This document shows, piece after piece, positions 2,183 to 62,102 of a stretch of DNA of 64,000 nt; position 1 is the first letter of the stretch, and each line of letters begins with the position of its first letter. The position numbers were made by a program, and so were the translations under genes. The stretch comes from a virus (lineage: Duplodnaviria; Caudoviricetes): positions 489 through 64,488 of IMG/VR virus record IMGVR_UViG_3300036823_000091, one strand, 5' to 3'. The notes below the pieces were generated by a model, which was given only the letters and a program-made list of their open reading frames with translations, was not told where the DNA came from and searched no databases.

Positions 2183-5100
2183 CTAATCAAATACACTTGC
2201 CAGAAGTTTTGACCAGGACCCGGAATTCGGCCCACTTTCGCACGTGATAAGGCTTGTGTAAATTTGTGTTGGATTTCCGCTAGATGCATCTATTGTTGTC
2301 TGTTGTGTAACATCTATCTCAGTGATGAGCATCAATGCATCATTCAAGCTTGTCTCTGGATTGAATACAGGAATTGATTGTCCTATAGCTAAACCTGTTC
2401 GTAGCGTGTTGAATTGTATTTCATTGCCAATTACACCAAATCTCTGGAGAAGGTCATTCGCCATAAATGTGGCTGCTGAGATATTGAGGTTTTGGCTGCT
2501 CACGTCCTCCACCTCCTCAACAATGCCTGTACCTCCTGAGATAGCAGCAAATTGAGCTTGTGAAGTCGTGTTAGGGAATTGTCCGGTATTGTCAACTACA
2601 ACGCTTGTAGAGAACTGATAGACGTAATCAGGGAAAAACAATTCATCAGTATTTTGCAAGATTGCTCCACTGCTATCTTGATCAATTGCGGCACTATTAG
2701 GAGTCCAGTAAAAATCCTTGCCTGTATCTACACCTTTCACGCCTACGATTTGCAGTTGATTGTTTAGATAGATCGTTGGTTCTTCTACTAATATTCCACC
2801 TAATGTCCACGATTGTGTTGTACCATCACCTGCCTTTTTTTCTGTATCCGTTCCTGTTGCAATGACTCCTGTGATTATTTGTCTGTTTCTATAGAGATCA
2901 CCGCTATTCTTGAGATATAAGCCACTTACCATGATATCTTTATCGGTGAGTATCCAAGGTGCTGGATTTGCTTGATAGAGAGCAAAGATCATATTGAGAT
3001 TGTTATCTATCTTCCAATAGGTATTACTCTTTTTAGACAAATCATCCATATTTGCTGAAATGTAGGTATAGAGATAAGAGGCAGTAGGTATTAATGACCC
3101 TAGTGCGATGTTGGGATGCAATGCAGCCATAACAAGATCAGTAAGAGCAGGTGTTGCAGTAGGATCGGTGCTCGTTAGGGTAACTCTTGTAAAGGAGTTG
3201 ACTCCAGATAAGCTTTGTCCTTGTGGCTGCACTCTGAAGTTATAGAAGTGAGCTGAGCCCGTGACATTGATCAAGCCAGTTTTACCTGCAGCCGTGATTG
3301 AGCTATCTGTTGCTGAGAGCACGCTGTTACCATCAAAGTAGACCGTGATAGCATTGCCGATCATCGTAGCTCTAGCGCGGTATGGAGTCCCTCTTGTAAA
3401 GCCAATAGCTGTACTTGACCCAAGTTGAGTCTTGACGTTGCTTACAATCTTAAACAGCTTCAGAACATTGGTAGAACCTGCACTGGATGCGCTATCGAAA
3501 ATATCTAGCTCATAGAAGTTGCTTGCATCCTGCTCTCTCCAGACAAGTCCAGCTTGATCGGCTCTATCACTGTCAATAATGAGATCAACATCCTTGGGGG
3601 AAGCAGACGGTTGACTTGTTAATGGTCCCACGCTATAGAAAGTAGAAGGGGAAGACTGACTGTTGTATTCAGTGCCGATCCACCCTGCAGTCCTCACTGA
3701 ATTGGAATAATGCACCTCATCGATATCACCTTGAAAAAAGCCAGTAATCCAAGCTTTCCCGCCTATCCTGAGAGGATGAGTTACTGCCTGTGGAGCAACC
3801 GATGATTGAGAGGAGTCCTGTGCACCGTTAATGTACATAATAACAGTACTTGAGCTATACGTAACGGCTATGTGAGTCCAAGTGTTTAGTGGTATAGTTG
3901 CGGTTGAAAACTTGTCTTGAGATCCTGCAGGCCACCACCATAATCTACCCGTCGTATCAATACCGATAATATATCCGTTTGTGCCTCCATCCTCATTTCT
4001 GTCTATAATCGTTGCTCCATAAGATCCAAATGCGCTAGCAAAAGATGCTTGGTTAAATGCACTTGGATTAATCCAGAAGCTATATGTAAGAGTAGAAACT
4101 GTATTTAAGTTAGAAGCATTGGGAATATTTACATAATCACTTGAGCCATTATATGAGAGAGATTTACCTATTTGTCCACTAGTTGATAGGAGGTTGGTAT
4201 TCTGTTGTGCAGTTCCGTCATTTGCATTAGATGTGCTGTCATTTACTGAAGTAGAAGCTGCATTATCATAAGAGTGCATAACGAGCTTGAAGTTACTGTC
4301 CCATACACCTGTAATAAATTCCTGAGATGTAGATATTGAAGGGTTGCCAACATACATATAGAACACGGTATCAACTGTATGAGAAACAGTAGCTACTGAT
4401 ACCCACATTGCAATTTCACCAATGACAGGATCATAGTATTCAATCTCGAAAAAGAGTGCTCCTGTCTCTGTGCTATCGCTGAATATGATGTCGTATCCGT
4501 GAATATTTTGTACTAATCCTCTATTTGAGACATGAGCAAGATTAGGATCAATGATATGTACAAGAACAGGAAAACTTGAAAGGTCTGCTCCTCCAACAAC
4601 TTTTGTATGGTCGATTGTGAGCTTATACTTGTATGAGTATCCGGTGTTGTACCAAACTGGATTAGAAAGCTGCATGTCACTAGAGCCACCTGAGACATCT
4701 AGTCGTGAGCTAGCCGTGTTCCATGTCCAGGTGCCTGCCGATCCTCCAGTTTTGTTGAGATGGGTATAGTTGAGATGAGTATCAACTGCAAAGCTATCCA
4801 AGGATGCAAGAGGCTGTGAGGTGAGCCCAGCTATTGCTCCTCCATTGTTGACGTTTGTCCAGCTTGTTGAACCGTTTGGGCTTGTAGCGACTACAACCGA
4901 CGTGTTGGGAGGCGTAATTGCCTCCCAATTCACGACGGAAGAGCCGCATACAAGTGCAGGAGACAAGGAGAGAGCAGGAGAAATACGCGTTCCAGTTGAG
5001 CTAAATCCGCCTAAAACATAGAGTGTCATATCTTGGATTTGAGGCAAGACAGTAGATGTATTGCAGCTAAAGAGCATTTGAAGCAGGAGATTAACACCGG

Positions 5101-7453
5101 AAAGAGACTGCCCAGGTGTAAGGTTTGGCAGAGGCCCTCCATTGGTGCAAAGTTGCCATGTGCTCCCGCCATTGACACTTGCCCAAAAATTGTTTGCTAC
5201 CTGTGTTGTGTCAGTTGAGACATCATCCCATTGGATTACAGAATTAAGATAGGTTCCTGCTCCTGATAGGGATATTGATTGTGATGTCCAATTGCTCCCA
5301 GAAGAGAGATTCGTTGTGGAGATCCCAAAATTATCAAATGTGCCAATATATCCATCTGTTGTAGAAGTATTCGAGATCCGAACGCCCACATTGCCTGCCG
5401 CTCCATAGGTTGCATCCGTAATCTGAAATGCAAGAGTATCATCAAAATATATATTGTGACTTGATCCAACTACAACAATCTTAATATGATGCATTGCTTG
5501 TGATGTGAGCCCTACTGTTGCAGTACCTATTTGCGTTGGTGAAAAGTTACTTGAAGCCCCTGCATTATTTGAGCCTCTAAAGAGCTTAATAGATGTCCCA
5601 ATGATCTCTAGAGCATAAGCAAACGTGCCATCATAGTTTGACCATCCTGTTGTCCTGTATACACTTCCAACCTTCATGAGAGTATTGTCAACTGCTACGT
5701 CGTATTCCTTTTGGAAGTCGCCCCACGTTCCAGCGAAATCCATTCTAGAACGACCTTCTGTGCTTTGATGGACTTCCATCCTGAGTTGTCTGGAGTCTAC
5801 ATACTGCCAGCAGCTATTCGCGTTATTTGGTCCCGTCGCACCTCCTCCAAAGAGCGTTTGTCCAGCGATGGCCCCGCTGATGCTGCCGCTATCCCAATTT
5901 CTTACAGCCCCAAATGGCGCAATAGTGTTACTTGCTGCTTGTGCGTTTGTAAATGAACCACCATTCCATTGTGCAGTAGTAGTATATTCTGCATTTATAT
6001 CGCTTTTTGTAGCATTATACGATGGCTGCATAACCATCTCTACAGAATTGAGCATTGGCTGCTGTGTTGGATCGGCTCCTGCACCTTGCGTAAACGATTG
6101 AAGAAATTGAATAGTTTTACCAGATAAGGACTGTCCAGCTAGCAAGGCAGGCAGTGACGTGTTATTTATGCATGGGGTGTAGCTATTTCCTCCATCAATG
6201 GAGTACTGTGTTGAAAAGCTATAACCTGTTGGAAGTGTTGTCTGATAGGTAAGAAAAGAGCTTTTGAGTATATTGACAGGACTAATATTATATCCTGGAG
6301 ATACGCGATTTGCCGATGAACAATCATAGGTATTCACGATTGTCACGGGCGTATCATTGTATCCCTGCCTATACATCTGTTGTGGAAGATTTGAACCGAA
6401 TGGTCCTCCGCTAAAGAACGTGCCGTGATTTGTACCGCCACTATCGAGCCACACTACATTTTTTGCGTACCCTGTATAGGTACCTGATGAATCGCCTTCT
6501 ATGGCGAACATCGCGTATACAATTGTTTTACCAGCAAAGGTGTCCATCAGAAATGATCGGTGATACCACTGATCCGTTGCATATCCTTTTAAGTCCGTTC
6601 CTGGATGAGGACTTTTGTTTTGTGCATCAAAATACTGTCCATTATTAGATACTGCATTATCTCGTAAAGTTGATCCATCACTAAATACAAGGTCTAGAGC
6701 GATTTTTGCTTCTGGGCTAGAAGAAGATATCCATAGGTCATAAGTGAAGTATCTGCCTGAAACGACTGTTATTGAGCCAGTCCAAAACTTGATATAGGAG
6801 TAGCTATTCGTAACGGCTGCGATACTTTGCGTTGCCTGTATCTTCATAGCGGCAGTTGCACTAGGTCCTAGAGCACTTCCCGTAGTAGCCATATTCGTAA
6901 GCGTGCCTTGACTAAAGGTAGATGCGCTATTTTCAAAGATCGTTATGCCATTTCCAGCAGCCGCTAATTCAAGGTCTCCTCCATTGTTACTTGTGGCAGC
7001 CGTACCTGAGAGTGTTCCCTGTGCAAAATTTGCTTGTGTATTATCTTCATCAATTGCATAATTTGCTGTTACACCTTCTAGCGCAAGAACATCATTTATC
7101 ATTCCTGCTACGACTACACCAGCGTATTGATTTGTATATGTTTTATTGGTTGTCCTCTTTAAAGCAATGAAATGATTATCTATGCATACTATTTGGTGAT
7201 AGCGTACTGAAGAAGCGCCAGGAGCTTTTATAATCTCTGAAGTGTTCACATATCCTTTGAAGAGTGTCCCCAGCAATGTATCAGTAAGAGTTACTTGTTG
7301 ACCTTTGCTGAATATCCATGCACTATTTACATCAAGGACAGTGAGATCTAGCTCAGATGACTCATCAATCTTTGTGGAGAGCTTGAAGCTGCCATCATTC
7401 AATATGGGATAGGGGACTCCTGCAATAGTGAGAGTGAGAGTTGTGACCGCCAT
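2183..7453 (-). CDS. Large tail hub/receptor-binding protein with DUF2341-like and LamG/concanavalin-like domains
   Basis: 1756 aa directly after the tape measure. Hub-like N and C termini, DUF2341-like segment (FPVLV..DIIF..WV..FYMYVGNP), LamG segment (WTHIAVTY..MYING..IGG..FQGDIDEV). Confidence 0.75.
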   Translation of the reverse strand: MAVTTLTLTIAGVPYPILNDGSFKLSTKIDESSELDLTVLDVNSAWIFSKGQQVTLTDTLLGTLFKGYVNTSEIIKAPGASSVRYHQIVCIDNHFIALKRTTNKTYTNQYAGVVVAGMINDVLALEGVTANYAIDEDNTQANFAQGTLSGTAATSNNGGDLELAAAGNGITIFENSASTFSQGTLTNMATTGSALGPSATAAMKIQATQSIAAVTNSYSYIKFWTGSITVVSGRYFTYDLWISSSSPEAKIALDLVFSDGSTLRDNAVSNNGQYFDAQNKSPHPGTDLKGYATDQWYHRSFLMDTFAGKTIVYAMFAIEGDSSGTYTGYAKNVVWLDSGGTNHGTFFSGGPFGSNLPQQMYRQGYNDTPVTIVNTYDCSSANRVSPGYNISPVNILKSSFLTYQTTLPTGYSFSTQYSIDGGNSYTPCINNTSLPALLAGQSLSGKTIQFLQSFTQGAGADPTQQPMLNSVEMVMQPSYNATKSDINAEYTTTAQWNGGSFTNAQAASNTIAPFGAVRNWDSGSISGAIAGQTLFGGGATGPNNANSCWQYVDSRQLRMEVHQSTEGRSRMDFAGTWGDFQKEYDVAVDNTLMKVGSVYRTTGWSNYDGTFAYALEIIGTSIKLFRGSNNAGASSNFSPTQIGTATVGLTSQAMHHIKIVVVGSSHNIYFDDTLAFQITDATYGAAGNVGVRISNTSTTDGYIGTFDNFGISTTNLSSGSNWTSQSISLSGAGTYLNSVIQWDDVSTDTTQVANNFWASVNGGSTWQLCTNGGPLPNLTPGQSLSGVNLLLQMLFSCNTSTVLPQIQDMTLYVLGGFSSTGTRISPALSLSPALVCGSSVVNWEAITPPNTSVVVATSPNGSTSWTNVNNGGAIAGLTSQPLASLDSFAVDTHLNYTHLNKTGGSAGTWTWNTASSRLDVSGGSSDMQLSNPVWYNTGYSYKYKLTIDHTKVVGGADLSSFPVLVHIIDPNLAHVSNRGLVQNIHGYDIIFSDSTETGALFFEIEYYDPVIGEIAMWVSVATVSHTVDTVFYMYVGNPSISTSQEFITGVWDSNFKLVMHSYDNAASTSVNDSTSNANDGTAQQNTNLLSTSGQIGKSLSYNGSSDYVNIPNASNLNTVSTLTYSFWINPSAFNQASFASAFGSYGATIIDRNEDGGTNGYIIGIDTTGRLWWWPAGSQDKFSTATIPLNTWTHIAVTYSSSTVIMYINGAQDSSQSSVAPQAVTHPLRIGGKAWITGFFQGDIDEVHYSNSVRTAGWIGTEYNSQSSPSTFYSVGPLTSQPSASPKDVDLIIDSDRADQAGLVWREQDASNFYELDIFDSASSAGSTNVLKLFKIVSNVKTQLGSSTAIGFTRGTPYRARATMIGNAITVYFDGNSVLSATDSSITAAGKTGLINVTGSAHFYNFRVQPQGQSLSGVNSFTRVTLTSTDPTATPALTDLVMAALHPNIALGSLIPTASYLYTYISANMDDLSKKSNTYWKIDNNLNMIFALYQANPAPWILTDKDIMVSGLYLKNSGDLYRNRQIITGVIATGTDTEKKAGDGTTQSWTLGGILVEEPTIYLNNQLQIVGVKGVDTGKDFYWTPNSAAIDQDSSGAILQNTDELFFPDYVYQFSTSVVVDNTGQFPNTTSQAQFAAISGGTGIVEEVEDVSSQNLNISAATFMANDLLQRFGVIGNEIQFNTLRTGLAIGQSIPVFNPETSLNDALMLITEIDVTQQTTIDASSGNPTQIYTSLITCESGPNSGSWSKLLASVFD

Positions 7454-43262: not shown

Positions 43263-44396
43263 CTATGCCGCATCTTTTGCATCTAGATACTTCTCAATTG
43301 TATCTAGTCGAGATGGTGTAAGATGTGATGTATGGGTAACATTTGCATTAAGAATGGAGCTAGCGAACTTCAAGAATGCTGCAACATTCTTTACAGCATC
43401 CCCTTCCACAACTTCAAATTGATTGAGAACTTTTGCACGGTCAAGAGCCGCGTTCATCCTCACTTTGAGAGCTTTTGTAAGATCGGGCTCCTCTTGCTTA
43501 GGTGCTGCAGGCTGTTCCTTTTGCACTGGCTGTACAGGCTTGGATGCTTTAGCCTGATTATACTCGCGTAAGTCAGCATTGAGTTGAGTGATGACAGCTT
43601 TGGCATCTTCAGATGTCAATCCATCTGTCCCTAACTCAGGTTTTCCCATTTTAGCCTGAAGCATCTGGATTGTCTTGATTTGTCCAGCATTAATTGGTGC
43701 AGGATCACTGTTAGTTACTACCTCTACTTTCTGAACACGACTAGCTGTCTGCTTCAGAGCTTCATTCTCTTCATTGGACTCTACTTCAGGAACAATAGTA
43801 ATCACGGTCTTTTCACTATCAGCTTGAAGCATCTCTTCATGAAGATAGAGACCTCCACATTCCTCTTCAAATGCGCCTCTTAGAGCATCAGCTAAAGCAC
43901 ATTTGAGAAGCATTAGCTTGCCCATCTTCTCCCAGAAGTGAGTTAACCCACCTCCACTATTCTGGGATTTGTATTGAGCCTTTTCATCAAAGTAGGCAAC
44001 TCCCCATACAGGAACTCTAAAGCCATTGCGATACACGCCTATACGAGCTGCGTAGGGATGCTTGCCTAACTTCTTAGGCCATAGCTTGTAGAAATTACCC
44101 TCTTCATCACCCCATTCAGGTTCGGTTGTACCCTCAAATTGTCCGGTTCTTAGAGCTAGAGCTCTCAATCCTCCAATAGTGATCTGAGGGGTATAAACAG
44201 TCTTTTTTTGGTTACTATCATATCTCCCTACTAGGCACATTTGACCACGCATAGGAGATAGGCGATACGTTCTACATTTCTCAATAAAGATTTGCCAAGC
44301 ATCATTAGGCGTGTTTGCGGGTGCAAAGTGTTTCTTGAAGATGTCTAGCTCTTCTGTAGGATCTGTAAGAGCTAGAGATTTGGAGTCGATTGCCAT
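43263..44396 (-). CDS. RecT/Red-beta-like single-strand annealing protein
   Basis: F...C....LSP..., I.GLR.LA.RTGQF.G, W.KM...ML.KCA.A.ALR.AF. Confidence 0.88.
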   Translation of the reverse strand: MAIDSKSLALTDPTEELDIFKKHFAPANTPNDAWQIFIEKCRTYRLSPMRGQMCLVGRYDSNQKKTVYTPQITIGGLRALALRTGQFEGTTEPEWGDEEGNFYKLWPKKLGKHPYAARIGVYRNGFRVPVWGVAYFDEKAQYKSQNSGGGLTHFWEKMGKLMLLKCALADALRGAFEEECGGLYLHEEMLQADSEKTVITIVPEVESNEENEALKQTASRVQKVEVVTNSDPAPINAGQIKTIQMLQAKMGKPELGTDGLTSEDAKAVITQLNADLREYNQAKASKPVQPVQKEQPAAPKQEEPDLTKALKVRMNAALDRAKVLNQFEVVEGDAVKNVAAFLKFASSILNANVTHTSHLTPSRLDTIEKYLDAKDAA

Positions 44397-53661: not shown

Positions 53662-54789
53662 ATGCGCATTACATGTAAACAGCAAGATCTCAGAAAAGGT
53701 TTGTCCATTGTAGAACATGCCGTATCTGGCAAGAGTACACTGCCGATCCTCTCCAATATTTTATTGGCAACTGACCAGGGACGATTGAAGCTCTATGCAA
53801 CCAACCTAGAGATCGGTATCAGCTTTTGGGTAGATGCAGACATCATTGAGGAGGGAACTACAACCGTTCCTGCTAAGACGTTCTCAGAGCTTGTAGCTAG
53901 TCTAGCATCTGGAGATCTAGACCTAAGCAGCTCAGATGAGACTCACACCACAAACGTCAAATCTGCTAAGAGCAATGCGAACATCAGGGGACTAGACCCG
54001 TCTGAATATCCAGCAGCCCCAAATTCTGAAGGAGCTGAAGCGCCTATCTCTATAGAAGCAAATCTGCTCAAAGAAATGATCAATCAGGTTGCTTTTGCCG
54101 CAGCCAGTGATGACTCACGTCCGGTCTTGTCTGGAGTACTTATTGAAATCAGCAACGAGAAATTGTCCTTTGCCGCAGCCGATTCTTTCCGTTTGGCACT
54201 CAGGGAGACGCCACTTCCAGGTTATGACCATTTGGTCTATAGCAACATATTGGTACCCGCCAAGACCTTATCAGAATTAGGTAAAATTCTGCCTTCAGAG
54301 GGCACTGTAGAGATGATCGTCACTCCAAACCGTAGTCAGGTACTCTTCCATACAGAGGCTCTAGATTTGGTTTCTCGTTTGATTGAGGGCACATTCCCAA
54401 ACATACGCGCAGCCATACCTAAGCAGCCTGCCACTAAAGTCACACTGGAGACAAAGGACTTTGCTGCAGCCGTCAAGATGGTGACTCCCTTTGCTAGAGA
54501 TAATTCCAATATCACTCGTGTCAAGGTCACTAATGGAATTACAGGCGAATTGACGCTAGAAGCAAACACTGAAGACATAGGCGATAACACGGTTACTGTT
54601 AATGCATCCATTGACGGACCTGACACAAATATCATCTTTAACACAAAGTATCTTAGTGACGTTCTAGCCATCATCAATAGCCCTGAAACAACCCTACTAC
54701 TCAATACCGGTGCATCCTCTGGAATTATTAGACCTGCAGATAACGAAGATTATACCTATGTCATTATGCCAATGTCAGTGAACAGATAG
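53662..54789 (+). CDS. dnaN: DNA polymerase III beta sliding clamp
   Basis: LPILSNILL, ATNLEI, SRPVLSGV, AADSFRLA, SRLIEG.FP, YVIMP, 375 aa. Confidence 0.97.
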   Translation: MRITCKQQDLRKGLSIVEHAVSGKSTLPILSNILLATDQGRLKLYATNLEIGISFWVDADIIEEGTTTVPAKTFSELVASLASGDLDLSSSDETHTTNVKSAKSNANIRGLDPSEYPAAPNSEGAEAPISIEANLLKEMINQVAFAAASDDSRPVLSGVLIEISNEKLSFAAADSFRLALRETPLPGYDHLVYSNILVPAKTLSELGKILPSEGTVEMIVTPNRSQVLFHTEALDLVSRLIEGTFPNIRAAIPKQPATKVTLETKDFAAAVKMVTPFARDNSNITRVKVTNGITGELTLEANTEDIGDNTVTVNASIDGPDTNIIFNTKYLSDVLAIINSPETTLLLNTGASSGIIRPADNEDYTYVIMPMSVNR

Positions 54790-54794
54790 GATTT

Positions 54795-55730
54795 TTGATC
54801 ATGACAATTAATTCTGAAGTGCTATTCCAAGAGCTTAATGGAGAGTTTAATGCTGGCTTTCCATCTATTCCATCTCAAGTATTTCACACAAGCAAAGGCA
54901 TACCATATCTTAAAAAGCCTGGAATAGCATGTATAGGTCGCACCATGACGGCTATAGATTCTATGCAAGATTTTCTCAATGGATTTGATAGCTCATTACG
55001 TTTTCCCGAATACCTCCATGATAATGGTATCTCAGGAGGTAGAGCGTTCCTAGATGGTGCTGATATTTGCAAGATTGCAGGCCAATTGTGCTACATGAGT
55101 TTTGGGACTAATCGCACTTGGAACAAAGATGCTGAGAAGTATTTTAATAATATTAAAGCATCAGGACATGGGAGTGTCCTTGAAGCTTTCAATATCACCA
55201 TACTAGCTTATGGTGACTCAAGAAGCTTGACACATGAATGGGCACGCCATAGACACCTTTCATACTCCCAAGTGAGTCAGAGGTATGTTTCAGGTAAAAC
55301 ACTACGATTTGTTGAAAGACCTGAATGGCAAGCAGATGAGCATTTACATCTACGATTTGAAGATCGAATCGACCGTGCGGCACAAGAGTACAACGAATTG
55401 ACTGAAATCTTGCTCCTAGATCAGCAACAAGGCAAGCAGCTATTAAGTGCTGAAGCAAAAACTGATCTCAGAAAAAAAGTCAGACAAGCAGCTCGTTCTT
55501 GTCTGCCAAATGAAACAGAGGCCCCAATCATCGTTACTGGCAATGCACGTGCCTGGAGACACTTCCTAGAGATGAGAGCATCAGAACATGCAGAGATTGA
55601 GATTAGGGAACTAGCAACAAGGATATTTCTTTGTCTTTATCAGATTGACCCTATCCTGTTTGGAGATTACAGGCTTGAAAAATTGCAAGATGGTACCCAT
55701 GTAGTAAGTACAGAGTACAGAAAGGTGTAG
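54795..55730 (+). CDS. thyX: FAD-dependent thymidylate synthase
   Basis: GHGSVLE, RHRHLSYSQVS (RHRX7S), AR..LP, N.RAWRHF..R...HA..EIR. Confidence 0.95.
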   Translation: MIMTINSEVLFQELNGEFNAGFPSIPSQVFHTSKGIPYLKKPGIACIGRTMTAIDSMQDFLNGFDSSLRFPEYLHDNGISGGRAFLDGADICKIAGQLCYMSFGTNRTWNKDAEKYFNNIKASGHGSVLEAFNITILAYGDSRSLTHEWARHRHLSYSQVSQRYVSGKTLRFVERPEWQADEHLHLRFEDRIDRAAQEYNELTEILLLDQQQGKQLLSAEAKTDLRKKVRQAARSCLPNETEAPIIVTGNARAWRHFLEMRASEHAEIEIRELATRIFLCLYQIDPILFGDYRLEKLQDGTHVVSTEYRKV

Positions 55731-55735
55731 CAAGG

Positions 55736-56179
55736 ATGTTAACACAACGGGAAATCGATATCCTCAAACTCTTGGCACAAGGACACAATGATACCCAAAT
55801 AGCTAAGAAGATGGCGTACATGGAGAACACAGTAAGGCATTATCTCTCAAGCATTAGGCAGAAACTTGGTTACTCGAAATATACACGTGAAGATATAGGA
55901 GCAATGCGGGTACGGCTAGCCATATACGCAGTTAGCACAGGTCTGTACAGTCCAAAACCAGAACAATATAGCTCACCAAGTCGCACACATGTGATTGAAA
56001 TGCGCCACAAACACGCCGCAGGCAACAGAGTACGTATTATCAACAAAGAACACAAGCTATATAAAGAGTACGGCATTATAAAGTCACTAATGCCGTATAC
56101 ATTCAAAAATCCTGCATACGATGTTGGATTTGGAGATAAGACGATAGCCATGTCAGAAAGCTCACTGGAGAAAGCATAA
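55736..56179 (+). CDS. LuxR-type HTH protein with C-terminal KOW/SH3-like domain
   Basis: LT.REI.IL.LLA.G....IA.....E.TV..Y.S.I..KLG. Confidence 0.8.
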   Translation: MLTQREIDILKLLAQGHNDTQIAKKMAYMENTVRHYLSSIRQKLGYSKYTREDIGAMRVRLAIYAVSTGLYSPKPEQYSSPSRTHVIEMRHKHAAGNRVRIINKEHKLYKEYGIIKSLMPYTFKNPAYDVGFGDKTIAMSESSLEKA

Positions 56180-56366
56180 TGCTGATCACATTCATATTTT
56201 ACGCTATAATATATCGCAATATTATAGTAATGGTAATCATACTTATATTTGCACTTATTGGTATTATTGCAGCATTTACAACATAGGACAAAACATGCCA
56301 TTAGGTATTCTTGCTATTTGGATTGTGCTTACAGTTATTAGATATTTTAGGAGGAGGAGCAAACAA

Positions 56367-56801
56367 ATGAACAAGTACGGATTGTCACTTATAGAGATTG
56401 GAACACTCATATTAATATCAGAAGGCAAAAGCATTGATGAGATTGTCAAGAACGGATATCCATCAATTGAGAAGTTTGATGACACCATTAGAAACATAAT
56501 GGATAAGACAAACGCGAATACTTGGGAGGAACTAAAGGCGATTGGATCACAATTGGTGCATATATCCAAAACACCTTCTACAGTGATTGAACCGATCAAG
56601 ATCGCAAATGACTATGATGATCTCTTAAAAGAGCACATAGAAGGTTTCTGCTACCTGTATGAAAAGCTAATCGAAGAGCACAAAATGCTATGCAATCAAT
56701 GCCATGAAGTTGCTCCAGGTCTTCATGCGATGTGCAATGAGCAAGGGAGATTGAGAGCTAAGAAGCTTGACTGGATGGACAGATTAATAACTAGGCTTTA
56801 G
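56367..56801 (+). CDS. Degenerate LuxR-like protein, target gene of the TnpB cassette
   Basis: GLS..E...L.LI.EG.S..EI, AGGAGG RBS, ends LD-WMDRLITRL. Confidence 0.65.
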   Translation: MNKYGLSLIEIGTLILISEGKSIDEIVKNGYPSIEKFDDTIRNIMDKTNANTWEELKAIGSQLVHISKTPSTVIEPIKIANDYDDLLKEHIEGFCYLYEKLIEEHKMLCNQCHEVAPGLHAMCNEQGRLRAKKLDWMDRLITRL

Positions 56802-56821
56802 ATCGGAGGAATATATTTAGT

Positions 56822-57298
56822 ATGACAAAACTAGCAAACGTGATTATTCCAGTTAGTGAGGCAAAATTGCAAGAACGTCAAGTCACTGTACAAGTGCTCA
56901 CAATTGGCACTAAGCAGATTACACAAGCACTGTATAAACAGCTAACAGAAGTGAACATAAGAGATGAAGACGGACTCATAAACCCCTTTACAGGCAAAGT
57001 GCAAGGGACTATATGGGGATGGGTTAACTTACATGATAACTGCATGTTCGATAAAAAGGATCATCTCCATGTCGTTTGGGAGAGTAATGGTGAACTAAAA
57101 AAATCAGAAGTTCATTTACCCTGGACTAAAACCTCTTCCTCATATGGCAGCATCCACATGACGAGCTACTGTACTGAATTGGCCAATAAGGGTAAAATAG
57201 ATGAACTTAACCAACTAAGAGCAAATTGGCTGATAAGTTGGCAGACTTGCAAAAATGCTGGACAGCTCTTCATAGCCGTGTCTGGAGTCTGGAAATGA
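56822..57298 (+). CDS. Hypothetical cargo protein of the cassette
   Basis: GGAGG RBS, V..LTIG.KQIT.A.YKQL..WGWVN.H..HVVW. Confidence 0.65.
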   Translation: MTKLANVIIPVSEAKLQERQVTVQVLTIGTKQITQALYKQLTEVNIRDEDGLINPFTGKVQGTIWGWVNLHDNCMFDKKDHLHVVWESNGELKKSEVHLPWTKTSSSYGSIHMTSYCTELANKGKIDELNQLRANWLISWQTCKNAGQLFIAVSGVWK

Positions 57299-57306
57299 AA
57301 GACAAG

Positions 57307-57567
57307 CTATCCCTCATTCCCAAGATCAACATACACAGAGGCAATGATTTCAGCTCGTTCCTGTGGTGTACACTCCAATGCTGTACACCACGCATTCAGG
57401 GTTTCCCTCTTGGGGACAACTTGACCGATCATTGCTCTAGCCAAGGCGTTGCGCCGAAAACCATGTTGAGCGCTGAAATCAACAACGCTTTTGTACCCTT
57501 TTGCCTTTATTTTCGGATTCATCAAACCTCGAAATCGGACAGGGTTGAACTTTTTTTCTTTGACCAT
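57307..57567 (-). CDS. XRE-like HTH repressor divergent from tnpB
   Basis: GGGAG RBS, HTH-like FSAQHGFRRNALARAMIGQVVP..ETL..W..AL. Confidence 0.65.
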   Translation of the reverse strand: MVKEKKFNPVRFRGLMNPKIKAKGYKSVVDFSAQHGFRRNALARAMIGQVVPKRETLNAWCTALECTPQERAEIIASVYVDLGNEG

Positions 57568-57591
57568 GAAAATACTCCCATAACAAAATTA

Positions 57592-57646
57592 TACCTTGAC
57601 AGGGTACAAAATATACGATATAATAAATCTGTACCTCAAGAAGGTA
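57592..57646 (+). promoter_or_regulatory. Consensus sigma70 promoter flanked by two palindromic operators
   Basis: TTGACA(57596)-17-TATAAT(57619), TACCT-N5-RGGTA at 57592-57606 and 57632-57646. Confidence 0.85.
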
Positions 57647-57708
57647 TATTATTCACATATAATACTTGGCGAAGACATAGATGTCAAGAAGCAAGGAAAA
57701 ACCACAAT

Positions 57709-58905
57709 ATGGCTAAGGCAGAGAAACTCAACCTTCTCAATAAGACATACAAGTTCCGCATTTATCCGAATAAAGCAACTACTGAGAAGCTTCAGTGGAC
57801 ACTTGACAGGTGCAGAGAACTGTATAACGCGGCTTTGCAAGAGCGTAAAGAAGCTTGGAAGTATGCCAAGAAGTCCATTAGCTGGGTTGAGCAGTGTCGC
57901 AGCTTAACCGAGATCAAGGCAGACGTGAGACCTGAATATAAAGAGATTGCTAGCCATGTCTTGCAAGATGTGATACTGCGAGTCGAGAAAGCCTATAAAG
58001 CTTTCTTTAGACGGATCAAGAATGGTGAGACACCCGGCTACCCAAGATTTCAAGGTCGGAATCACTATGACAGCTTTACTTATCCAGACCTATCGAACTG
58101 GAAACTAGAGATTGGAGAGAAAAAGAAAGGCAAGTTAATCCTCTCCAAAGTCGGCCCTATCAATGTCAAGATGCATAGACCAATTGAGGGGAAGATTAAA
58201 ACAATGACGCTCAAACGAGAAGGAGATGAATGGTATGTGGTGTTCTCTTGTGAAGTGGAAACATGTAAGAAACTACCATACACTGATTTCGCAATAGGGC
58301 TAGACTTGGGGCTTTTGCACTTTGCAACCGACTCGTTTGGACAAACGATAGAGAATCCGAGGCACTACCGACGTGCCGAGCAGAAACTTAAGAATGCACA
58401 ACAAGCTCTCTCTCGTAAGAAACGCAGATCGAACCGTCGTAAAAAGGCTGTTCAGAAAGTGACCAGGGCTCATAGAAAGATACGTAACCAAAGAAAAGAT
58501 TTTCTGCACAAACAATCTCGAATACTAGTAGACACCTTTGAAACAATCGTTTTTGAAGATATTCAACCTGCCAATCTTAGCAAGAGGCCAAGACCTAAGC
58601 AGGACGAGAACGGGAAATATCTTCCTAATGGAGCTAGCAAGAAGGCAGGTTTGAATAAGAGTATATTAGATGCTGGCTGGGGAATGTTCATAGCAATGTG
58701 CGAGTACAAGGCTGCGAGTGCTGGTACTCAAGTGCTACGAGTCGATCCCAGGAATACCAGCCAAGTATGCAGTGGCTGTGGCGTCAAAGGACCGCACAAG
58801 GACTTGAGTGTACGTACACATACTTGTTCAAGTTGCGGGCTAGTTCTTGACCGTGATCACAATGCTGCTCTCAACATACTAAAACGCGGCTTAGACGCTG
58901 CATAA
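57709..58905 (+). CDS. tnpB: RNA-guided endonuclease TnpB (398 aa)
   Basis: YKFRIYP, YNAAL, GYPRF, intact RuvC residues GLDLG / VFEDI / DRDHNAALNI, zinc finger CSGC..CSSC. Confidence 0.95.
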   Translation: MAKAEKLNLLNKTYKFRIYPNKATTEKLQWTLDRCRELYNAALQERKEAWKYAKKSISWVEQCRSLTEIKADVRPEYKEIASHVLQDVILRVEKAYKAFFRRIKNGETPGYPRFQGRNHYDSFTYPDLSNWKLEIGEKKKGKLILSKVGPINVKMHRPIEGKIKTMTLKREGDEWYVVFSCEVETCKKLPYTDFAIGLDLGLLHFATDSFGQTIENPRHYRRAEQKLKNAQQALSRKKRRSNRRKKAVQKVTRAHRKIRNQRKDFLHKQSRILVDTFETIVFEDIQPANLSKRPRPKQDENGKYLPNGASKKAGLNKSILDAGWGMFIAMCEYKAASAGTQVLRVDPRNTSQVCSGCGVKGPHKDLSVRTHTCSSCGLVLDRDHNAALNILKRGLDAA

Positions 58906-59005
58906 GCAAGAGACTACCCCAGGAAATGGGGTTCAGAGGACGCGCCTCTGAGAAGCTACGAGACTAAGTCTCATCAGTATTTCACTGGATGGATAAACTT
59001 ATCAC
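58860..59005 (+). ncRNA. Predicted omega/reRNA scaffold plus guide (5' boundary approximate)
   Basis: Hairpins CCCC/GGGG, CAGAGG/CCTCTG and GAGAC/GTCTC ending at TTCAC (58981-58985). Guide TGGATGGATAAACTTATCAC from 58986. Confidence 0.7.
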
Positions 59006-59030
59006 CAAGTTATAGAAAGGATTTTTAATC

Positions 59031-59249
59031 ATGATTGAAAAAGCAAAAGTGCTTGACATGATCGACAAAAAGATCATGGAGCATCAGAAAAACATCACGG
59101 AGTCTCTCAGAGAAGTAAATGCAGCTATAAGCAACCTTGACACTCAAGATGCTCAAAGAAAGTCAGTTGATGTCGCTAAGCATCAAGCAAAAGTTGATGC
59201 TTTAAACGAGATTAGAAAACAAATTAGCTTATGGTGCAAGCCACAATAG
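59031..59249 (+). CDS. Hypothetical coiled-coil protein
   Basis: GAAAGGA RBS. Confidence 0.55.
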   Translation: MIEKAKVLDMIDKKIMEHQKNITESLREVNAAISNLDTQDAQRKSVDVAKHQAKVDALNEIRKQISLWCKPQ

Positions 59250-59261
59250 AAGGAGAATATC

Positions 59262-59774
59262 ATGAACGAGAATGCCTTAGCACAAAAATGCTTCAATGCA
59301 CTTAATAAAGTAACTAAATGGAGGACAATTTTTTGCGGGTGGCAGCTAGGGACCCGACCATTAGGAGATCCCGAATCTGATGCCGTAAGAGATCATAGGG
59401 AAGTCACGATCCTAGAGCGTCTGGAGATTTCAGCACTGAAGCAAATCCTCATAGGGGTTGAGTTCTCACAAGAGGATTTCAATCAGGCATTAACAATCTG
59501 GAGTCAAGGTACGGACACATCAATAGACAATGCTACACAGGAGCATAGAGCTGTAACTATTTCTTTGCGAGTTGAGATCTCGGCTCTTCTACAAGTGCTT
59601 TTCCAGAAAGGCATTTTAACCTTAGAAGACTATCAGAAAGCCCTCATCCAAGAGTGTGATTATCTGGAGATGGACTATCAGAAGCGTTTTCCAGGCATGG
59701 AATCAACGGATACAGGCATGCACTTTTACGATGTCAACAAAGCAGCTAAAACGATGAAAAACTGGAAGCCATAG
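59262..59774 (+). CDS. Hypothetical protein with internal duplication
   Basis: HR.VTI..R.EISAL occurs twice. Confidence 0.65.
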   Translation: MNENALAQKCFNALNKVTKWRTIFCGWQLGTRPLGDPESDAVRDHREVTILERLEISALKQILIGVEFSQEDFNQALTIWSQGTDTSIDNATQEHRAVTISLRVEISALLQVLFQKGILTLEDYQKALIQECDYLEMDYQKRFPGMESTDTGMHFYDVNKAAKTMKNWKP

Positions 59775-59784
59775 GAGATATTTT

Positions 59785-60516
59785 ATGAGCAACGAACAAA
59801 ATACATGACATTTATCAGATAAAATTTCGCCTCTATCAGATAACTTTTCCGACCCATTGGAGCTGTAAAGCGTGCGAAAACGGGTGTGCTTCTATCACAT
59901 AACTTTTCTGCCTAATGTGTCCACCGTTTTCAAAGAGTATTTGGTACGAGTTTTCTCTGTTTTTGCCCCACAAGGAAAAGTTATCCGATAAAAACGAAAA
60001 GTTATGCGATTGAAACAACGCCGCTCTAGAAGCGCTTCCAGACGACTGGACGAAAAGTTATGTGATTAAAAACGGTGCGTTTGCCTTTTCGTTAGACGGC
60101 AACTGAGCCATGCAAACGTTTCGGCGAGGTCTGGAAAAGTTATGCGATTGAGCCGGTCATCTACTTCTAGCCTTCGATCAGCCTCACATGCCAATGTGGA
60201 GCTAGGCGACGAAAAGTTATGTGATTGAAAAGCGAAAAGTTATTCGAAAAATGTCAATACATCACCAGACAAAGACAAGATCACCATTGAGCTAGATGAC
60301 ACAGACAGTTATATTTTAGCAGAGGCAATTGCAGAACGTGTGCAAAAACTGTCAAAAGACACATCTATGACTAGCGTGTGCAAATTAGTCGTCTTGCAAG
60401 GAATTACACATCAAATACTAGAAAAGTGTATGGGCATGATCGATGAAGGATTGAGCCAAGAGGACATGCTGCTTCAAGCCCTCAAAAGAGAAAGAGAGAT
60501 GAAAGGTGGCAAATGA
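59785..60516 (+). pseudogene. Small gene interrupted by the mini-transposon
   Basis: Removing the element and one ATACA copy restores MSNEQNT-SPDKDKITIELDD...EMKGGK*. Confidence 0.85.
59806..60256. mobile_element. 451-bp non-autonomous TG..CA (Tn7/Mu-like) mini-transposon
   Basis: Ends TGACATTT / AAATGTCA, 5-bp target duplication ATACA, nine GAAAAGTTATnnGAT-like sites (3 in one orientation on the left, 6 in the other on the right). Confidence 0.88.
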
Positions 60517-60769
60517 AGCAAAGGTTATTTACGTTACTGCCATGCAAGGCACTAGACTCTCTATTTGCGGCTATTGTCGCAAGGTAACCGGAAATGTAAC
60601 AGCTATCATCTCAACACCATTTTATGAGCTAGTGAGTCCTGAAAGTTCTCCTAAGCCTGAAATGTTGAACATTCGGTTTAAACCAGTTGAGCACTGCACG
60701 TGTATAGAAGAAGTGCTGAAAGGGACCACGGTGAAGCAATCGAAAGGAGACCAAAGTGAATTGGGATGA
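60506..60769 (+). CDS. Hypothetical Cys-containing protein
   Basis: Coupled ORF. Confidence 0.5.
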   Translation: MANEAKVIYVTAMQGTRLSICGYCRKVTGNVTAIISTPFYELVSPESSPKPEMLNIRFKPVEHCTCIEEVLKGTTVKQSKGDQSELG

Positions 60770-61109
60770 TATGACACCTATTGAGAAAAATGCAATCGTC
60801 GCACAGATCGTGTTCAAACGCAAGCTTCTTGATGGGACAATACTGCTTACGGAAGGCAGAGAACTTGTACCGCATTACTCTACAGATTGGCATGCGGCAT
60901 GGCAGATCTTCAAAAACATCGATGAGTTGCCAGATGATATTTGGGATGCAAAAATCAGAAAACAAATCTTCTGGAAAGCATTGGGAATCACTGACTATCT
61001 CAATCCTGATGCCCTTGTTGTTGCTTGGAAGCAGGTTGTATCTTGGACACCCAAGTTAGTTTGTAGAGCAGCATTGAAAGCGTATGGAGTAAAGAGTGAT
61101 TGCACTTGA
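60756..61109 (+). CDS. Phage hypothetical protein (P.YSTD..AAW..P..VC.AAL.A)
   Basis: Motif typical of the phage ABA-sandwich/BC1872-like family. Confidence 0.6.
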   Translation: MNWDDMTPIEKNAIVAQIVFKRKLLDGTILLTEGRELVPHYSTDWHAAWQIFKNIDELPDDIWDAKIRKQIFWKALGITDYLNPDALVVAWKQVVSWTPKLVCRAALKAYGVKSDCT

Positions 61110-61276
61110 AACAAGATTAAGACACCTAAACGCTGAGGAGCTAAAGCGCAAGTTCAAAGAGAAGCAGGACAAGGCTACTAAGTCTCAAATCAAAGAGAAA
61201 GAGCACAAACTAGTATCTATCGCAGTACAAACACCACAATATATTTGCATGGCAAGAGGCTAAGGAGTAATAAAAC

Positions 61277-61543
61277 ATGAAAGACCTTCGTAAGCAAATA
61301 GAGCTATTCATGGAAGCTAGCGTGCTTCATGTCGTAGACATGGATAATCCTAGTTCAGTTGATGCATTAAAGTCTGCCCATATTAATTTAGCAAAATGTA
61401 TACATCTTGAAGCTCAAACTTATCTCTTAATCCAAATACTCGACATGCTTGGCAATATCAATGAAAAGCTTGCCATGGCGAATATCAATATCCAGGATGT
61501 TGGGCAAGAGGTATCAAAACTGAATCCGGAGTACAAGTCATGA
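61277..61543 (+). CDS. Hypothetical protein
   Basis: AAGGAG RBS. Confidence 0.55.
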   Translation: MKDLRKQIELFMEASVLHVVDMDNPSSVDALKSAHINLAKCIHLEAQTYLLIQILDMLGNINEKLAMANINIQDVGQEVSKLNPEYKS

Positions 61544-61842
61544 CAGAAATATCCCTAAAACAGAATACACAGTTTTCAGGACACGCCAAGACTGTCTACG
61601 AAAAGCTCTATGATCAATTCAGCAATTTAATGATACAAGAGTCTGACGGATCATATCAGGGAAGAGACAAAGAAGCTGAGCAGACAAGGCAAGGCATCAT
61701 TGAGACCATTGCAGAATGTGACTATGACCTCGTAAAGCACACAGTAGAGCATATTGACCCCAAAGATCTTGACGTGCTAGGAATTGAAGAGACTGTACAG
61801 AGGATACCAGATCTTACAACATGGTCCAAGGAGGATAACTAA
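61540..61842 (+). CDS. Hypothetical protein
   Basis: ATGA-coupled. Confidence 0.55.
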   Translation: MTEISLKQNTQFSGHAKTVYEKLYDQFSNLMIQESDGSYQGRDKEAEQTRQGIIETIAECDYDLVKHTVEHIDPKDLDVLGIEETVQRIPDLTTWSKEDN

Positions 61843-62102
61843 TGCCACAATTCATCCAACTAGGGAATTTATTTATCAACACATCTGATATTGTTTATGT
61901 AGATTTTAGCGATGACAATAGCGTTATGCTTATTTTGTCATCTATTGATAAAGAAGCATACGGAAGGCAATTCCTTGCTAGTGAGGAGATGCGGTTCTCA
62001 GCAGAGACACCAGAATACCATGCATTGCGAACATGGCTGTTAGGAAGTTGCCTAATGTTAGTGCCGTTCCCTGGAAAGGACAAGAGCACATGCACTCCCT
62101 GA
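61842..62102 (+). CDS. Hypothetical protein
   Basis: AGGAGG RBS. Confidence 0.55.
   Translation: MPQFIQLGNLFINTSDIVYVDFSDDNSVMLILSSIDKEAYGRQFLASEEMRFSAETPEYHALRTWLLGSCLMLVPFPGKDKSTCTP

Follow-up and report, generated by a model that had tools for sequence, protein, structure and literature searches.

The 64,000-nucleotide stretch analysed here (the window) represents bases 489-64488 of the 64,488-base IMG/VR virus record IMGVR_UViG_3300036823_000091, for which completeness was estimated at 74%. It possesses a predicted transposase-less TnpB/omega-RNA block, here called the cassette (56772-58985), which appears to be placed at a TTGAC pentamer nine codons before the end of a small regulator-like gene, gene X. 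Very probably the cassette sits at this TTGAC in the gene X tail, the original tail of the gene serves as guide template, and a replacement tail is used by gene X. The features needed for this reading are as follows.

56367-56801, plus strand: gene X, the putative target gene, an open reading frame (ORF) of 144 aa with a LuxR/GerE-like helix-turn-helix (HTH) N-terminal part, a Cys-rich C-terminal half and an invariant tail.
56767-56771, plus strand: TTGAC, candidate transposon-associated motif (TAM) by inference, directly 5' of the resident tail and the reconstructed insertion point of the element.
56772-56801, plus strand: replacement tail, WMDRLITRL and stop, which completes gene X; 30 nt, TGGATGGACAGATTAATAACTAGGCTTTAG, the final nine codons and the stop codon.
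57709-58905, plus strand: tnpB, 398 aa, predicted ISDra2-type RNA-guided nuclease with intact RuvC triad and CCCC zinc finger.
58906-58985, plus strand: non-coding part of the omega-RNA scaffold, with hairpins at 58917-58931, 58933-58951 and 58960-58972 and a tail ending in TTTCAC (right end).
58986-59015, plus strand: displaced tail, WMDKLITKL and stop, untranslated; TGGATGGATAAACTTATCACCAAGTTATAG; the guide template is predicted to be its first 16-20 nt.

Gene X and its two tails

Homology between the two tails begins exactly at the TTGAC site on one side and exactly after the right-end TTCAC (58981-58985) of TnpB on the other. The two 30-mers agree in 21 of 30 bases: they are the same over the first 8 nt, and the mismatches fall at positions 9, 11, 13, 15, 18, 21, 23, 25 and 27, five of them within the first 20 nt. 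A repeat search extended the pair to 41 nt with 71% identity (56767-56807 and 58981-59021). The best ungapped match to the guide 30-mer within 5 kb upstream of tnpB is the resident tail, and 300 shuffled versions of the 30-mer gave at most 20/30 there. Among the nine differing bases, seven are synonymous and two lead to K/R swaps, and only 0.018% of 100,000 random sets of nine substitutions keep at least 7/9 residues without a stop. At the protein level, the per-residue score of the tail match was 4.78, and the runner-up among 20 ORF ends had 0.33. The synonymous bias and the shuffle test together therefore indicate that both copies once served as coding ends of the gene X family. The two tails appear to have diverged under selection for the peptide, because a pattern of seven synonymous changes and two K/R swaps is so rare among random variants.

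Comparison with the five gene X homologues (67-94% identity, one of them named a CsgD-family regulator by JGI) showed the tail WMDKLITKL in four and WMDRLITKL in one, and the WMDRLITRL of the window in none. Thus the copy behind the right end is best read as the common, original tail of the family, and the expressed tail as the odd one, a diverged replacement. The tails differ at 9 of 30 bases as against 67 of 526 in the gene body, when the window is compared with its cassette-free relative described below (binomial p about 0.01). This higher divergence, which continues beyond the guide, fits a replacement tail taken from a distant gene X allele. These comparisons agree with the original prediction on three points: two gene tails with an identical 8-nt start, five mismatches in 20 nt and only synonymous or K/R changes; a guide that is a second copy of the gene X 3' end; and a replacement C terminus that keeps gene X whole.

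The final eleven residues of gene X are invariant in the window and the homologues P0001-P0005 except at 134 (L/R/K), 139 (K/R) and 143 (K/R). The codon of residue 134 supplies the TT of TTGAC and residue 139 corresponds to guide positions 10-12. Alleles with R or K at residue 134 cannot encode TTGAC. Judged from position, the variation at these three residues may confer resistance to the nuclease.

For gene X, an alternative upstream ATG at 56295 would give a protein of 168 aa. No Pfam match was obtained at E<=0.01. A profile search of 1.84 billion representatives added only distant relatives, reaching the LuxR-repeat protein P0161, and gene X therefore seems to belong to a small family of phage proteins with a LuxR-like HTH. 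No relative was recovered from IMG/VR with the single protein (9 pattern matches) or with the alignment (150 pattern matches), nor from JGI metagenome contigs (110 pattern matches). A search of 169 genomes from the class of genome G193 did not find gene X either; it had no positive control and says little.

Right end and omega-RNA

The right end was placed by comparison with other TnpB loci. Distant relatives (41-48% identity) share with the window a ..GAGAAGC, a hairpin and a terminal ..(G/T)TCAC, at which the similarity ends; the right ends of TnpB relatives read ..GTTCAC, GTCGTCAC or TACTTCAC. In six pairs of copies within Chloroflexota genomes (L083/L089, L061/L078, L061/L088, L078/L088, L066/L081 and L070/L085), the similarity stops at ..TCAC or one base later. 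For another IS605 TnpB, a conserved TTCAC right end has been reported, with the guide beginning directly after UUCAC (PMC11043419). On the basis of this boundary and that report, the right end is therefore assigned to 58985 and the predicted guide template to 58986 onward.

The omega-RNA scaffold probably starts inside the 3' end of tnpB. The order of three hairpins is common to the window and its relatives. Stem B of the window (TTCAGAGGACGCGCCTCTGAGAAGC) together with GAGAAGC is almost identical to that of L083, L089 and L067, and stems A and C differ in sequence. The hairpins were called from single-sequence folds. RNAalifold on a MAFFT alignment recovered two of the three, because stem B was misregistered between subgroups. 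When the window sequence is folded by itself, the minimum-energy structure has a long-range helix with a second GAGACU where the third hairpin would be. Rfam gave no family match for this region; a sub-threshold PsrR1 hit (21.8 bits against a gathering score of 42) was read as chance.

The TnpB nuclease

TnpB matched the Pfam families HTH_OrfB_IS605 (E 1e-9), OrfB_IS605 (1.9e-25) and Cas12f1-like_TNB (6.8e-25), all above the cut-offs, and the ISDra2 TnpB structures 8h1j and 8bf8 (E about 1e-63). Identity to ISDra2-like Deinococcus copies is 47-48%. The catalytic residues D191, E278 and D361 of ISDra2 (named as in PMC10097598) correspond in the alignment to D199, E283 and D383, and this triad, together with C354, C357, C373 and C376, is invariant in all 15 aligned close homologues, so that the RuvC D/E/D residues claimed earlier to be intact are indeed in place. 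Because of the triad and the four zinc cysteines, the conserved omega-RNA hairpins and a promoter matching the consensus at 12 of 12 positions, TnpB looks to be an active nuclease. The start at ATG 57709 fits the homologues. A longer ORF of 559 aa (57226-58905) consists of tnpB and an in-frame upstream extension which overlaps an opposite-strand HTH gene and the promoters described below. PADLOC Cas12 models also match, as expected for TnpB, and no CRISPR array was found in 54000-62000, where the search gave only three rows of 15-29 nt.

The same residues bear on a different function. TnpB might act like a TldR regulator, binding without cutting at the partly matching resident tail or at the 3' end of gene X, and tuning expression of ORF158 or gene X. 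The resident site keeps TTGAC and a perfect 8-nt TAM-proximal match, and phage-borne TnpB relatives acting as repressors have been reported. However, TldRs are described as nuclease-dead and the triad is intact here; the perfect match of the guide, moreover, is the displaced tail and not the resident one. A regulatory role of this kind is therefore considered highly improbable.

Missing transposase, missing left end and passenger genes

The Y1 transposase family PF01797 and the serine recombinase family PF00239 had no match anywhere in the 64,488-base record, and both were detected in control genomes (PF01797 in six), in line with the earlier statement that tnpA is absent. Since most tnpB genes are reported to be without a nearby tnpA (10.1101/2023.03.14.532601), this absence does not exclude the element from the IS200/IS605 family. 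The relatives' left ends lie 100-230 nt upstream of the tnpB start. Their motif (GTAAAACCCC, hairpin, GGGGATAGAAG) was absent by eye from the 260 nt before tnpB in the window, and no copy of the right-end hairpin was found within 56600-57700. The element is therefore best called a TnpB cassette derived from an IS200/IS605-type insertion sequence (IS), not a complete IS. The place of the left-end motif is occupied by two back-to-back promoters and a divergent HTH gene. The remaining features of the cassette and its right neighbour are given below.

56822-57298, plus strand: ORF158, passenger gene with 26 homologues, a conserved N-terminal motif and a C-terminal AGQLFIAVSGVWK.
57307-57567, minus strand: HTH86, 86-aa HTH protein of Xre/Cro type, divergent from tnpB; candidate cassette repressor.
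57596-57624, plus strand: predicted tnpB promoter of sigma-70 type, TTGACA-17-TATAAT, 12/12 consensus; the TTGAC at 57596-57600 doubles as the -35 box.
57659-57687, minus strand: predicted HTH86 promoter, TTGACA-17-TATTAT, 11/12 consensus, back to back with the tnpB promoter.
59031-59249, plus strand: ORF72, the first gene to the right; in the cassette-free relative it follows gene X directly, with 107 letters between.

HTH86 showed weak matches to two Pfam families that did not reach the curated cut-offs, HTH_31 (E 9e-4) and HTH_26 (E 2e-3), and to a PHROG transcriptional repressor (E 5.5e-3). Many of the Chloroflexota copies L060-L089 possess a gene of 52-60 aa for a ribbon-helix-helix protein between the left end and tnpB. 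Among six small ORFs before tnpB in relatives, four match Pfam Arc at E<=0.001, three of them above the curated cut-off. A preprint describes Arc as a repressor of IS605 promoters (10.64898/2026.09.24.754181). By analogy with these Arc genes, HTH86 is therefore a plausible functional stand-in for Arc.

Members of the ORF158 family share a strongly conserved N-terminal block (QERQVTV.VLTIGTKQ.TQ.LYKQL .. WGWVNLH.DC .. H.H.IWE.NG.LK, alignment A2), followed by a hypervariable middle of 0-100 residues and then the invariant C-terminal motif. ORF158 as a regular partner of TnpB was considered and rejected, as none of 20 JGI loci with an ORF158 relative has TnpB, gene X, HTH86 or ORF72 nearby. ORF158 could itself be a protein homing endonuclease, in which case the duplicated tail would be a scar of intronless homing and TnpB a later lodger. 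Its conserved Cys, His and Glu residues (C74, H81, H83, E87) and its position directly behind the replacement tail speak for such an enzyme, to which very little credence is given: ORF158 has no match in Pfam, PHROG or PADLOC, and the start of the duplicate exactly at the TnpB right end would be left to chance. The structure model (predicted local distance difference test score 78.5) found no PDB match at E<=1e-3 (best VIA Z 2.9), which weighs little against such an enzyme; three weak BFVD matches were all to uncharacterised phage proteins.

Relatives with and without the cassette

Presence or absence of the cassette at this one site is polymorphic among related contigs: the block is missing in X4 record 12 and present in X2 and X3 contigs. 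X4 record 12 (2,733 nt) matches 56266-56791 with 67 differences, continues with 107 other letters and then matches 59031-59773 with 83 differences, so that 56792-59030 is not represented. It was taken as the source of homologue P0001 (94% identity, tail WMDKLITKL).

The cassette-bearing X2 record 1 (93,207 nt), which comes from another study, matches 55272-59248 with 47 differences. The 40 differences listed comprise 32 within the 335 nt of 55372-55706, a single one at 56127 and a further seven in 59010-59054; the stretch 56128-59009 has no listed difference, so that in this single comparison the cassette is about 100% identical. Beyond the tract, the two phages either cannot be aligned or differ by 17-20%, with 8 of 47 letters changed at 54517-54563 and 41 of 204 at 60547-60750; overall the X2 flanks differ by about 6-20% from the window. 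The last Leu codon of the displaced tail is CTT in the X2 phage and TTA in the window (59010, 59012). X3 contigs covering 56418-56935, 57662-58030, 58077-58509 and 58534-58708 showed no difference at all. The cassette junctions are not an assembly artefact, because the 93,207-nt contig runs through 55272-59248 and a 298-nt contig matches 56638-56935 at every position.

X4 record 11 differs from the window thyX at only five of 921 nt (99.5% identical). From this near identity and the X2-identical tract, the window therefore looks like an X4-like backbone which received a 3.3-kb X2-like segment with the LuxR-like gene, gene X and the cassette. The right border of the identical tract lies within 24 nt of the right end. 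Its first differing markers (59010, 59012) correspond to guide positions 25-27, just past the cut zone of 15-21 bp reported for ISDra2 TnpB (PMC8612924). Such a sharp right border fits what homing with one-sided co-conversion would leave.

Other mosaic segments were seen around the cassette. At the LuxR-like gene 55736-56179 (55732-56186), X4 possesses 549 other letters beside the near-identical thyX, a gene-sized mosaic replacement. The segment 59773-60515 varies among the relatives, with 479 other letters in X4, and X2 and X3 skip 59248-60547. A 429-nt X5 contig is identical to 59829-60256 and has a depth of 26.4, several-fold above other X5 pieces; this variation and depth fit a small multi-copy mobile element. 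A 123,440-nt contig (Logan/ENA; JGI twin 123,426 nt) appears to encode the gene X homologue P0002/P0153 with the tail WMDRLITKL and also the TnpBs P0034/P0154 and P0088/P0155, with 76% and 67% identity to the TnpB of the window. It could hold further cassettes of this kind.

Host and wider searches

The sequencing runs containing window DNA are soil metagenomes, with no RNA dataset among them. The closest TnpB relatives in Chloroflexota genomes are 47-64% identical, with a match at E<=1e-100 in 18 of 401 sampled genomes, and the named matches in the TnpB protein search were Ktedonobacteraceae or Dictyobacter. From these relatives and the soil runs, the host of the phage is therefore probably a soil Chloroflexota bacterium. 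A blastn search with 55700-59800 against 50,697 phage records gave zero matches. Relatives of ORF170 in IMG/VR (11 loci, 35-65% identity) were without gene X, ORF72, ORF158, HTH86 and TnpB.

A conserved host target of the guide was also considered. The first 18 nt of the guide had no exact match in the 169 genomes mentioned above. With one or two mismatches, 37 sites were found as against 10 for a reversed control, scattered at one or two per genome, and this candidate was rejected.

Proposed mechanism and self-protection

The layout is that of a natural cut-and-copy gene drive which would be aimed at related phages. As the right end abuts the original last nine codons, the displaced codons would template the guide; as the left edge of the cassette supplies diverged replacement codons, the regulator stays full length. 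In a co-infecting relative with the ordinary allele (TAM and original tail), the TnpB ribonucleoprotein would cut 15-21 bp into the tail. Repair of the break from the cassette-bearing genome through phage recombination would then copy the cassette, often with neighbouring genes, into the rival, and rivals too diverged for repair would be destroyed. A RecT, placed by the original prediction at 43263, is encoded at 43806-44348 on the minus strand. HTH86 and the back-to-back promoters would limit nuclease expression in the manner of Arc in IS605 elements. Function as an RNA-guided homing or anti-rival element is judged, from the sequence comparisons, to be somewhat more probable than its absence.

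The cassette-bearing genome itself would be protected at both tails. Resident gene X would be spared by the mismatches at guide positions 9, 11, 13, 15 and 18, and the displaced tail by being preceded by TTCAC, which is not the TAM. With a 20-nt guide, no site in the window apart from the displaced tail has three or fewer mismatches. For ISDra2, double mismatches within positions 1-12 are described to abolish cleavage (review PMC13639567, citing Nakagawa 2023), and the resident tail has two mismatches in that range (9 and 11). For SisTnpB7, single mismatches are reported to matter already at weak TAMs (PMC11043419). By this analogy, resistance of the resident tail is plausible. On the target side, translation of the guide region equals the protein tails of four of the five gene X homologues, a correspondence at the protein level only.

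The same anatomy, with a guide equal to the common tail and mismatches in the resident one, would also serve competitor exclusion without copying. TnpB would then destroy co-infecting or superinfecting relatives which possess the common tail, and spread of the cassette would be incidental. Gene X alleles are only 67-94% identical in protein, so many rivals may be too diverged leftward for repair, and exclusion is an outcome described for free-standing homing endonucleases in a review (PMC13565253). The presence of RecT and of an about 100% identical block in a second, diverged phage background, which indicates that it does get copied across, argue against exclusion as the sole role, and this explanation is held to be quite unlikely.

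Weighing of the homing interpretation

Several results weigh against homing as the function of the cassette. At the places of seven TAM contacts in ISDra2, TnpB has W59, C63, S82, H83, Q86, S129 and N130; five of the seven are changed (Y52W, S56C, K76S, F77H, T123S), which leaves Q80 and N124 as the conserved ones. Homology therefore gives no support to TTGAC as the TAM, a candidate deduced from the reconstructed insertion site. The codons of two of the five homologues, P0003 (..KKRD..) and P0004 (..NKKD..), cannot encode TTGAC at that position, as deduced from the residues. The cassette also holds ORF158 and the HTH gene, which the original prediction left unexplained. The cassette-free contig has 107 letters between 56791 and 59031, as against 25 expected for a precise empty site. 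Seven of the 47 X2 differences were not listed and their places not given. The sharp right border would have an estimated chance of about 9% under uniform crossover over 263 nt of right-hand homology.

The homing interpretation given earlier thus stands in its anatomy, in the cassette-free relative with gene X followed by ORF72, in the about 100% identical cassette in a diverged phage and in RecT, but the predicted empty site was found in inexact form. As to the TAM, the relatives' left ends suggest TTAT(C)-like sites by eye, and the TAM-contact residues of these relatives differ from those of the window TnpB. An attempt at predicting the TAM from the ISDra2 contact residues gave no prediction. 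The closest homologue with W59 and C63 is P0034.

Recurrence of the layout was also looked for. A check proposed earlier, in which the guides of other phage tnpB loci are translated and compared with gene ends, was carried out and returned no second clear case. At the DNA level, no clear layout of this kind was seen in 31 accessible viral TnpB loci (29 with p>=0.1, two marginal), and in the protein-tail screen none of 26 distinct viral loci was convincing. The 31 loci include five identical pairs; no right end could be assigned in L114, L118 and L121-L123, which were not included. The best other protein-tail match was L115, with five of eight residues in a seemingly non-coding frame.

Two further observations came from these screens. 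L095 and L097, two TnpB copies on one 29,481-nt IMG/VR contig, have flank matches of 20/30 (p about 0.01 and 0.03), and the upstream match of L095 begins with 11 identical bases. In L115 and L117 (about 4950-4985 and 6173-6230), AGGTTATAC.TTG occurs both in the right-end flank and in the DNA just before tnpB, close to where a downstream SbcC-like ATPase gene begins. This shared stretch may be a duplicated gene start.

A last point against homing concerns the left side of the cassette. The second TTGAC, at 57596-57600, lies 109 nt before the tnpB start and within the left-end range of the relatives, and could be the original left junction. This would imply a two-step origin, in which an IS inserted and a foreign gene X with ORF158 and HTH86 then replaced the broken gene, and the rescue layout may thus have arisen by accident, with no effect on what the present layout could do. 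According to this explanation, an IS200/IS605 element inserted after TTGAC, illegitimate or mosaic recombination with another phage then replaced the truncated gene, the left end and any tnpA, and TnpB remained as a roleless passenger. The incoming piece would have been a full foreign gene X allele with ORF158 and HTH86, and the block would move by ordinary recombination.

Such an accident would account for the second TTGAC, which stands within CTTGAC (L-D) in the same frame as gene X, for the composite nature of the block suggested by the unlinked ORF158 relatives (0/20 loci), and for the four changes among the ten bases at positions 21-30 of the replacement tail, past the guide, as expected of a foreign allele. 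The phages are also highly mosaic, with replaced segments at 54563-55272, 55732-56186, 59248-60547 and 59773-60515. However, it explains the origin and not the upkeep of the nuclease triad, the conserved omega-RNA, the consensus promoter and the dedicated divergent regulator. The G+C content of the tnpB region (about 0.41-0.49 over 57600-58999) is like the phage's own, and the 3.3-kb tract of about 100% identity between two diverged phages stops within 24 nt of the right end. Whatever the origin, the guide now matches the common allele of the relatives. An accidental origin with no present role is accordingly regarded as unlikely, and homing or action against rivals remains the preferred reading.

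Significance

TnpB is among the most abundant prokaryotic genes, and its demonstrated roles are retention of transposons after excision and the drive of IS through plasmid populations. If homing is the function here, the nuclease alone would be enough to maintain a mobile element, as is the case for protein homing endonucleases; guidance by RNA would replace protein recognition in the competition of phage versus phage; and cassettes would drag neighbour genes between phages and so shape phage mosaicism. The cassette would be a natural counterpart of engineered 'cleave and rescue' and homing gene drives, and it would offer a compact nuclease with a predicted natural target and a predicted natural resistant allele. 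More tentatively, with doubt slightly outweighing belief, phage home-and-rescue TnpB drives may form a widespread and undescribed class in conserved phage genes, in which the transposase and left end are lost, a mismatched patch gives immunity and neighbours hitch-hike in co-infection. Residues 134, 139 and 143 of gene X would then be the footprint of an arms race between drive and resistant alleles.

Comparison with known systems

The cassette resembles ISDra2 TnpB (Karvelis 2021, PMC8612924; structures 8h1j, 8bf8, 8exa) in its domain set, RuvC triad and zinc finger, in a predicted scaffold RNA which overlaps the gene 3' end and the right end, in a guide derived from the flank immediately after the right end, and in insertion 3' of a TTGA(T/C)-like pentamer. 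Unlike ISDra2, it has no TnpA in cis or elsewhere in the record and no recognisable left end, its TnpB is changed at five of seven TAM-contact residues, and it carries a replacement for the displaced gene piece and two passenger genes.

Homing of TnpB after excision is established (PMC8612924; Meers 2023, 10.1101/2023.03.14.532601), and TnpB is reported to drive IS spread through plasmid populations without TnpA activity (PMC11870625; PMC13565253). As in the gene drive described in these latter two sources, an element-free site would be cut and homologous repair would copy the element in, TnpA being dispensable in plasmids. A 2026 review (PMC13565253) also speaks of 'non-restorative homing' into co-infecting phages or plasmids and calls spread into homologous DNA theoretical. 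Known elements in chromosomes and plasmids merely interrupt their site, whereas here a conserved phage gene is kept whole by a mismatched spare tail, and two things, the interruption and the substitutions, set self apart from non-self.

According to the same review (PMC13565253), free-standing homing endonucleases of T-even phages tell self from rival by substitutions and co-convert their neighbours. As with SegF, SegB and Mob, the nuclease gene of the cassette lies between or in conserved phage genes, the target would be in the rival allele and the donor would be protected by substitutions. Their co-conversion is described as giving islands without sharp borders, and this fits the 3.3-kb identical tract. 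Unlike these enzymes, recognition in the cassette would be through a guide RNA hard-wired by the insertion site, and the protected copy is a carried duplicate gene end.

Integrative elements in the 3' ends of tRNA and tmRNA genes bring a replacement 3' end. The cassette is like them in that the interrupted gene is restored by a substitute 3' part and the remnant is displaced to the far end. Those elements have site-specific integrases and identical cores, whereas the two copies in the cassette are unlike and the enzyme is a predicted RNA-guided nuclease. As with Arc of IS605 (10.64898/2026.09.24.754181), a small DNA-binding protein is encoded beside a strong tnpB promoter; unlike Arc, HTH86 is of Xre/Cro type, divergently transcribed and weakly matched to HTH families, and is a repressor by inference. 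The cassette TnpB differs from TldR in keeping the RuvC catalytic residues. A literature search over titles and abstracts returned no description of a TnpB cassette that brings a substitute gene end to a phage. What is new in comparison with these systems is that the element is set in a phage, has lost its transposase and left end, and carries a spare gene tail.

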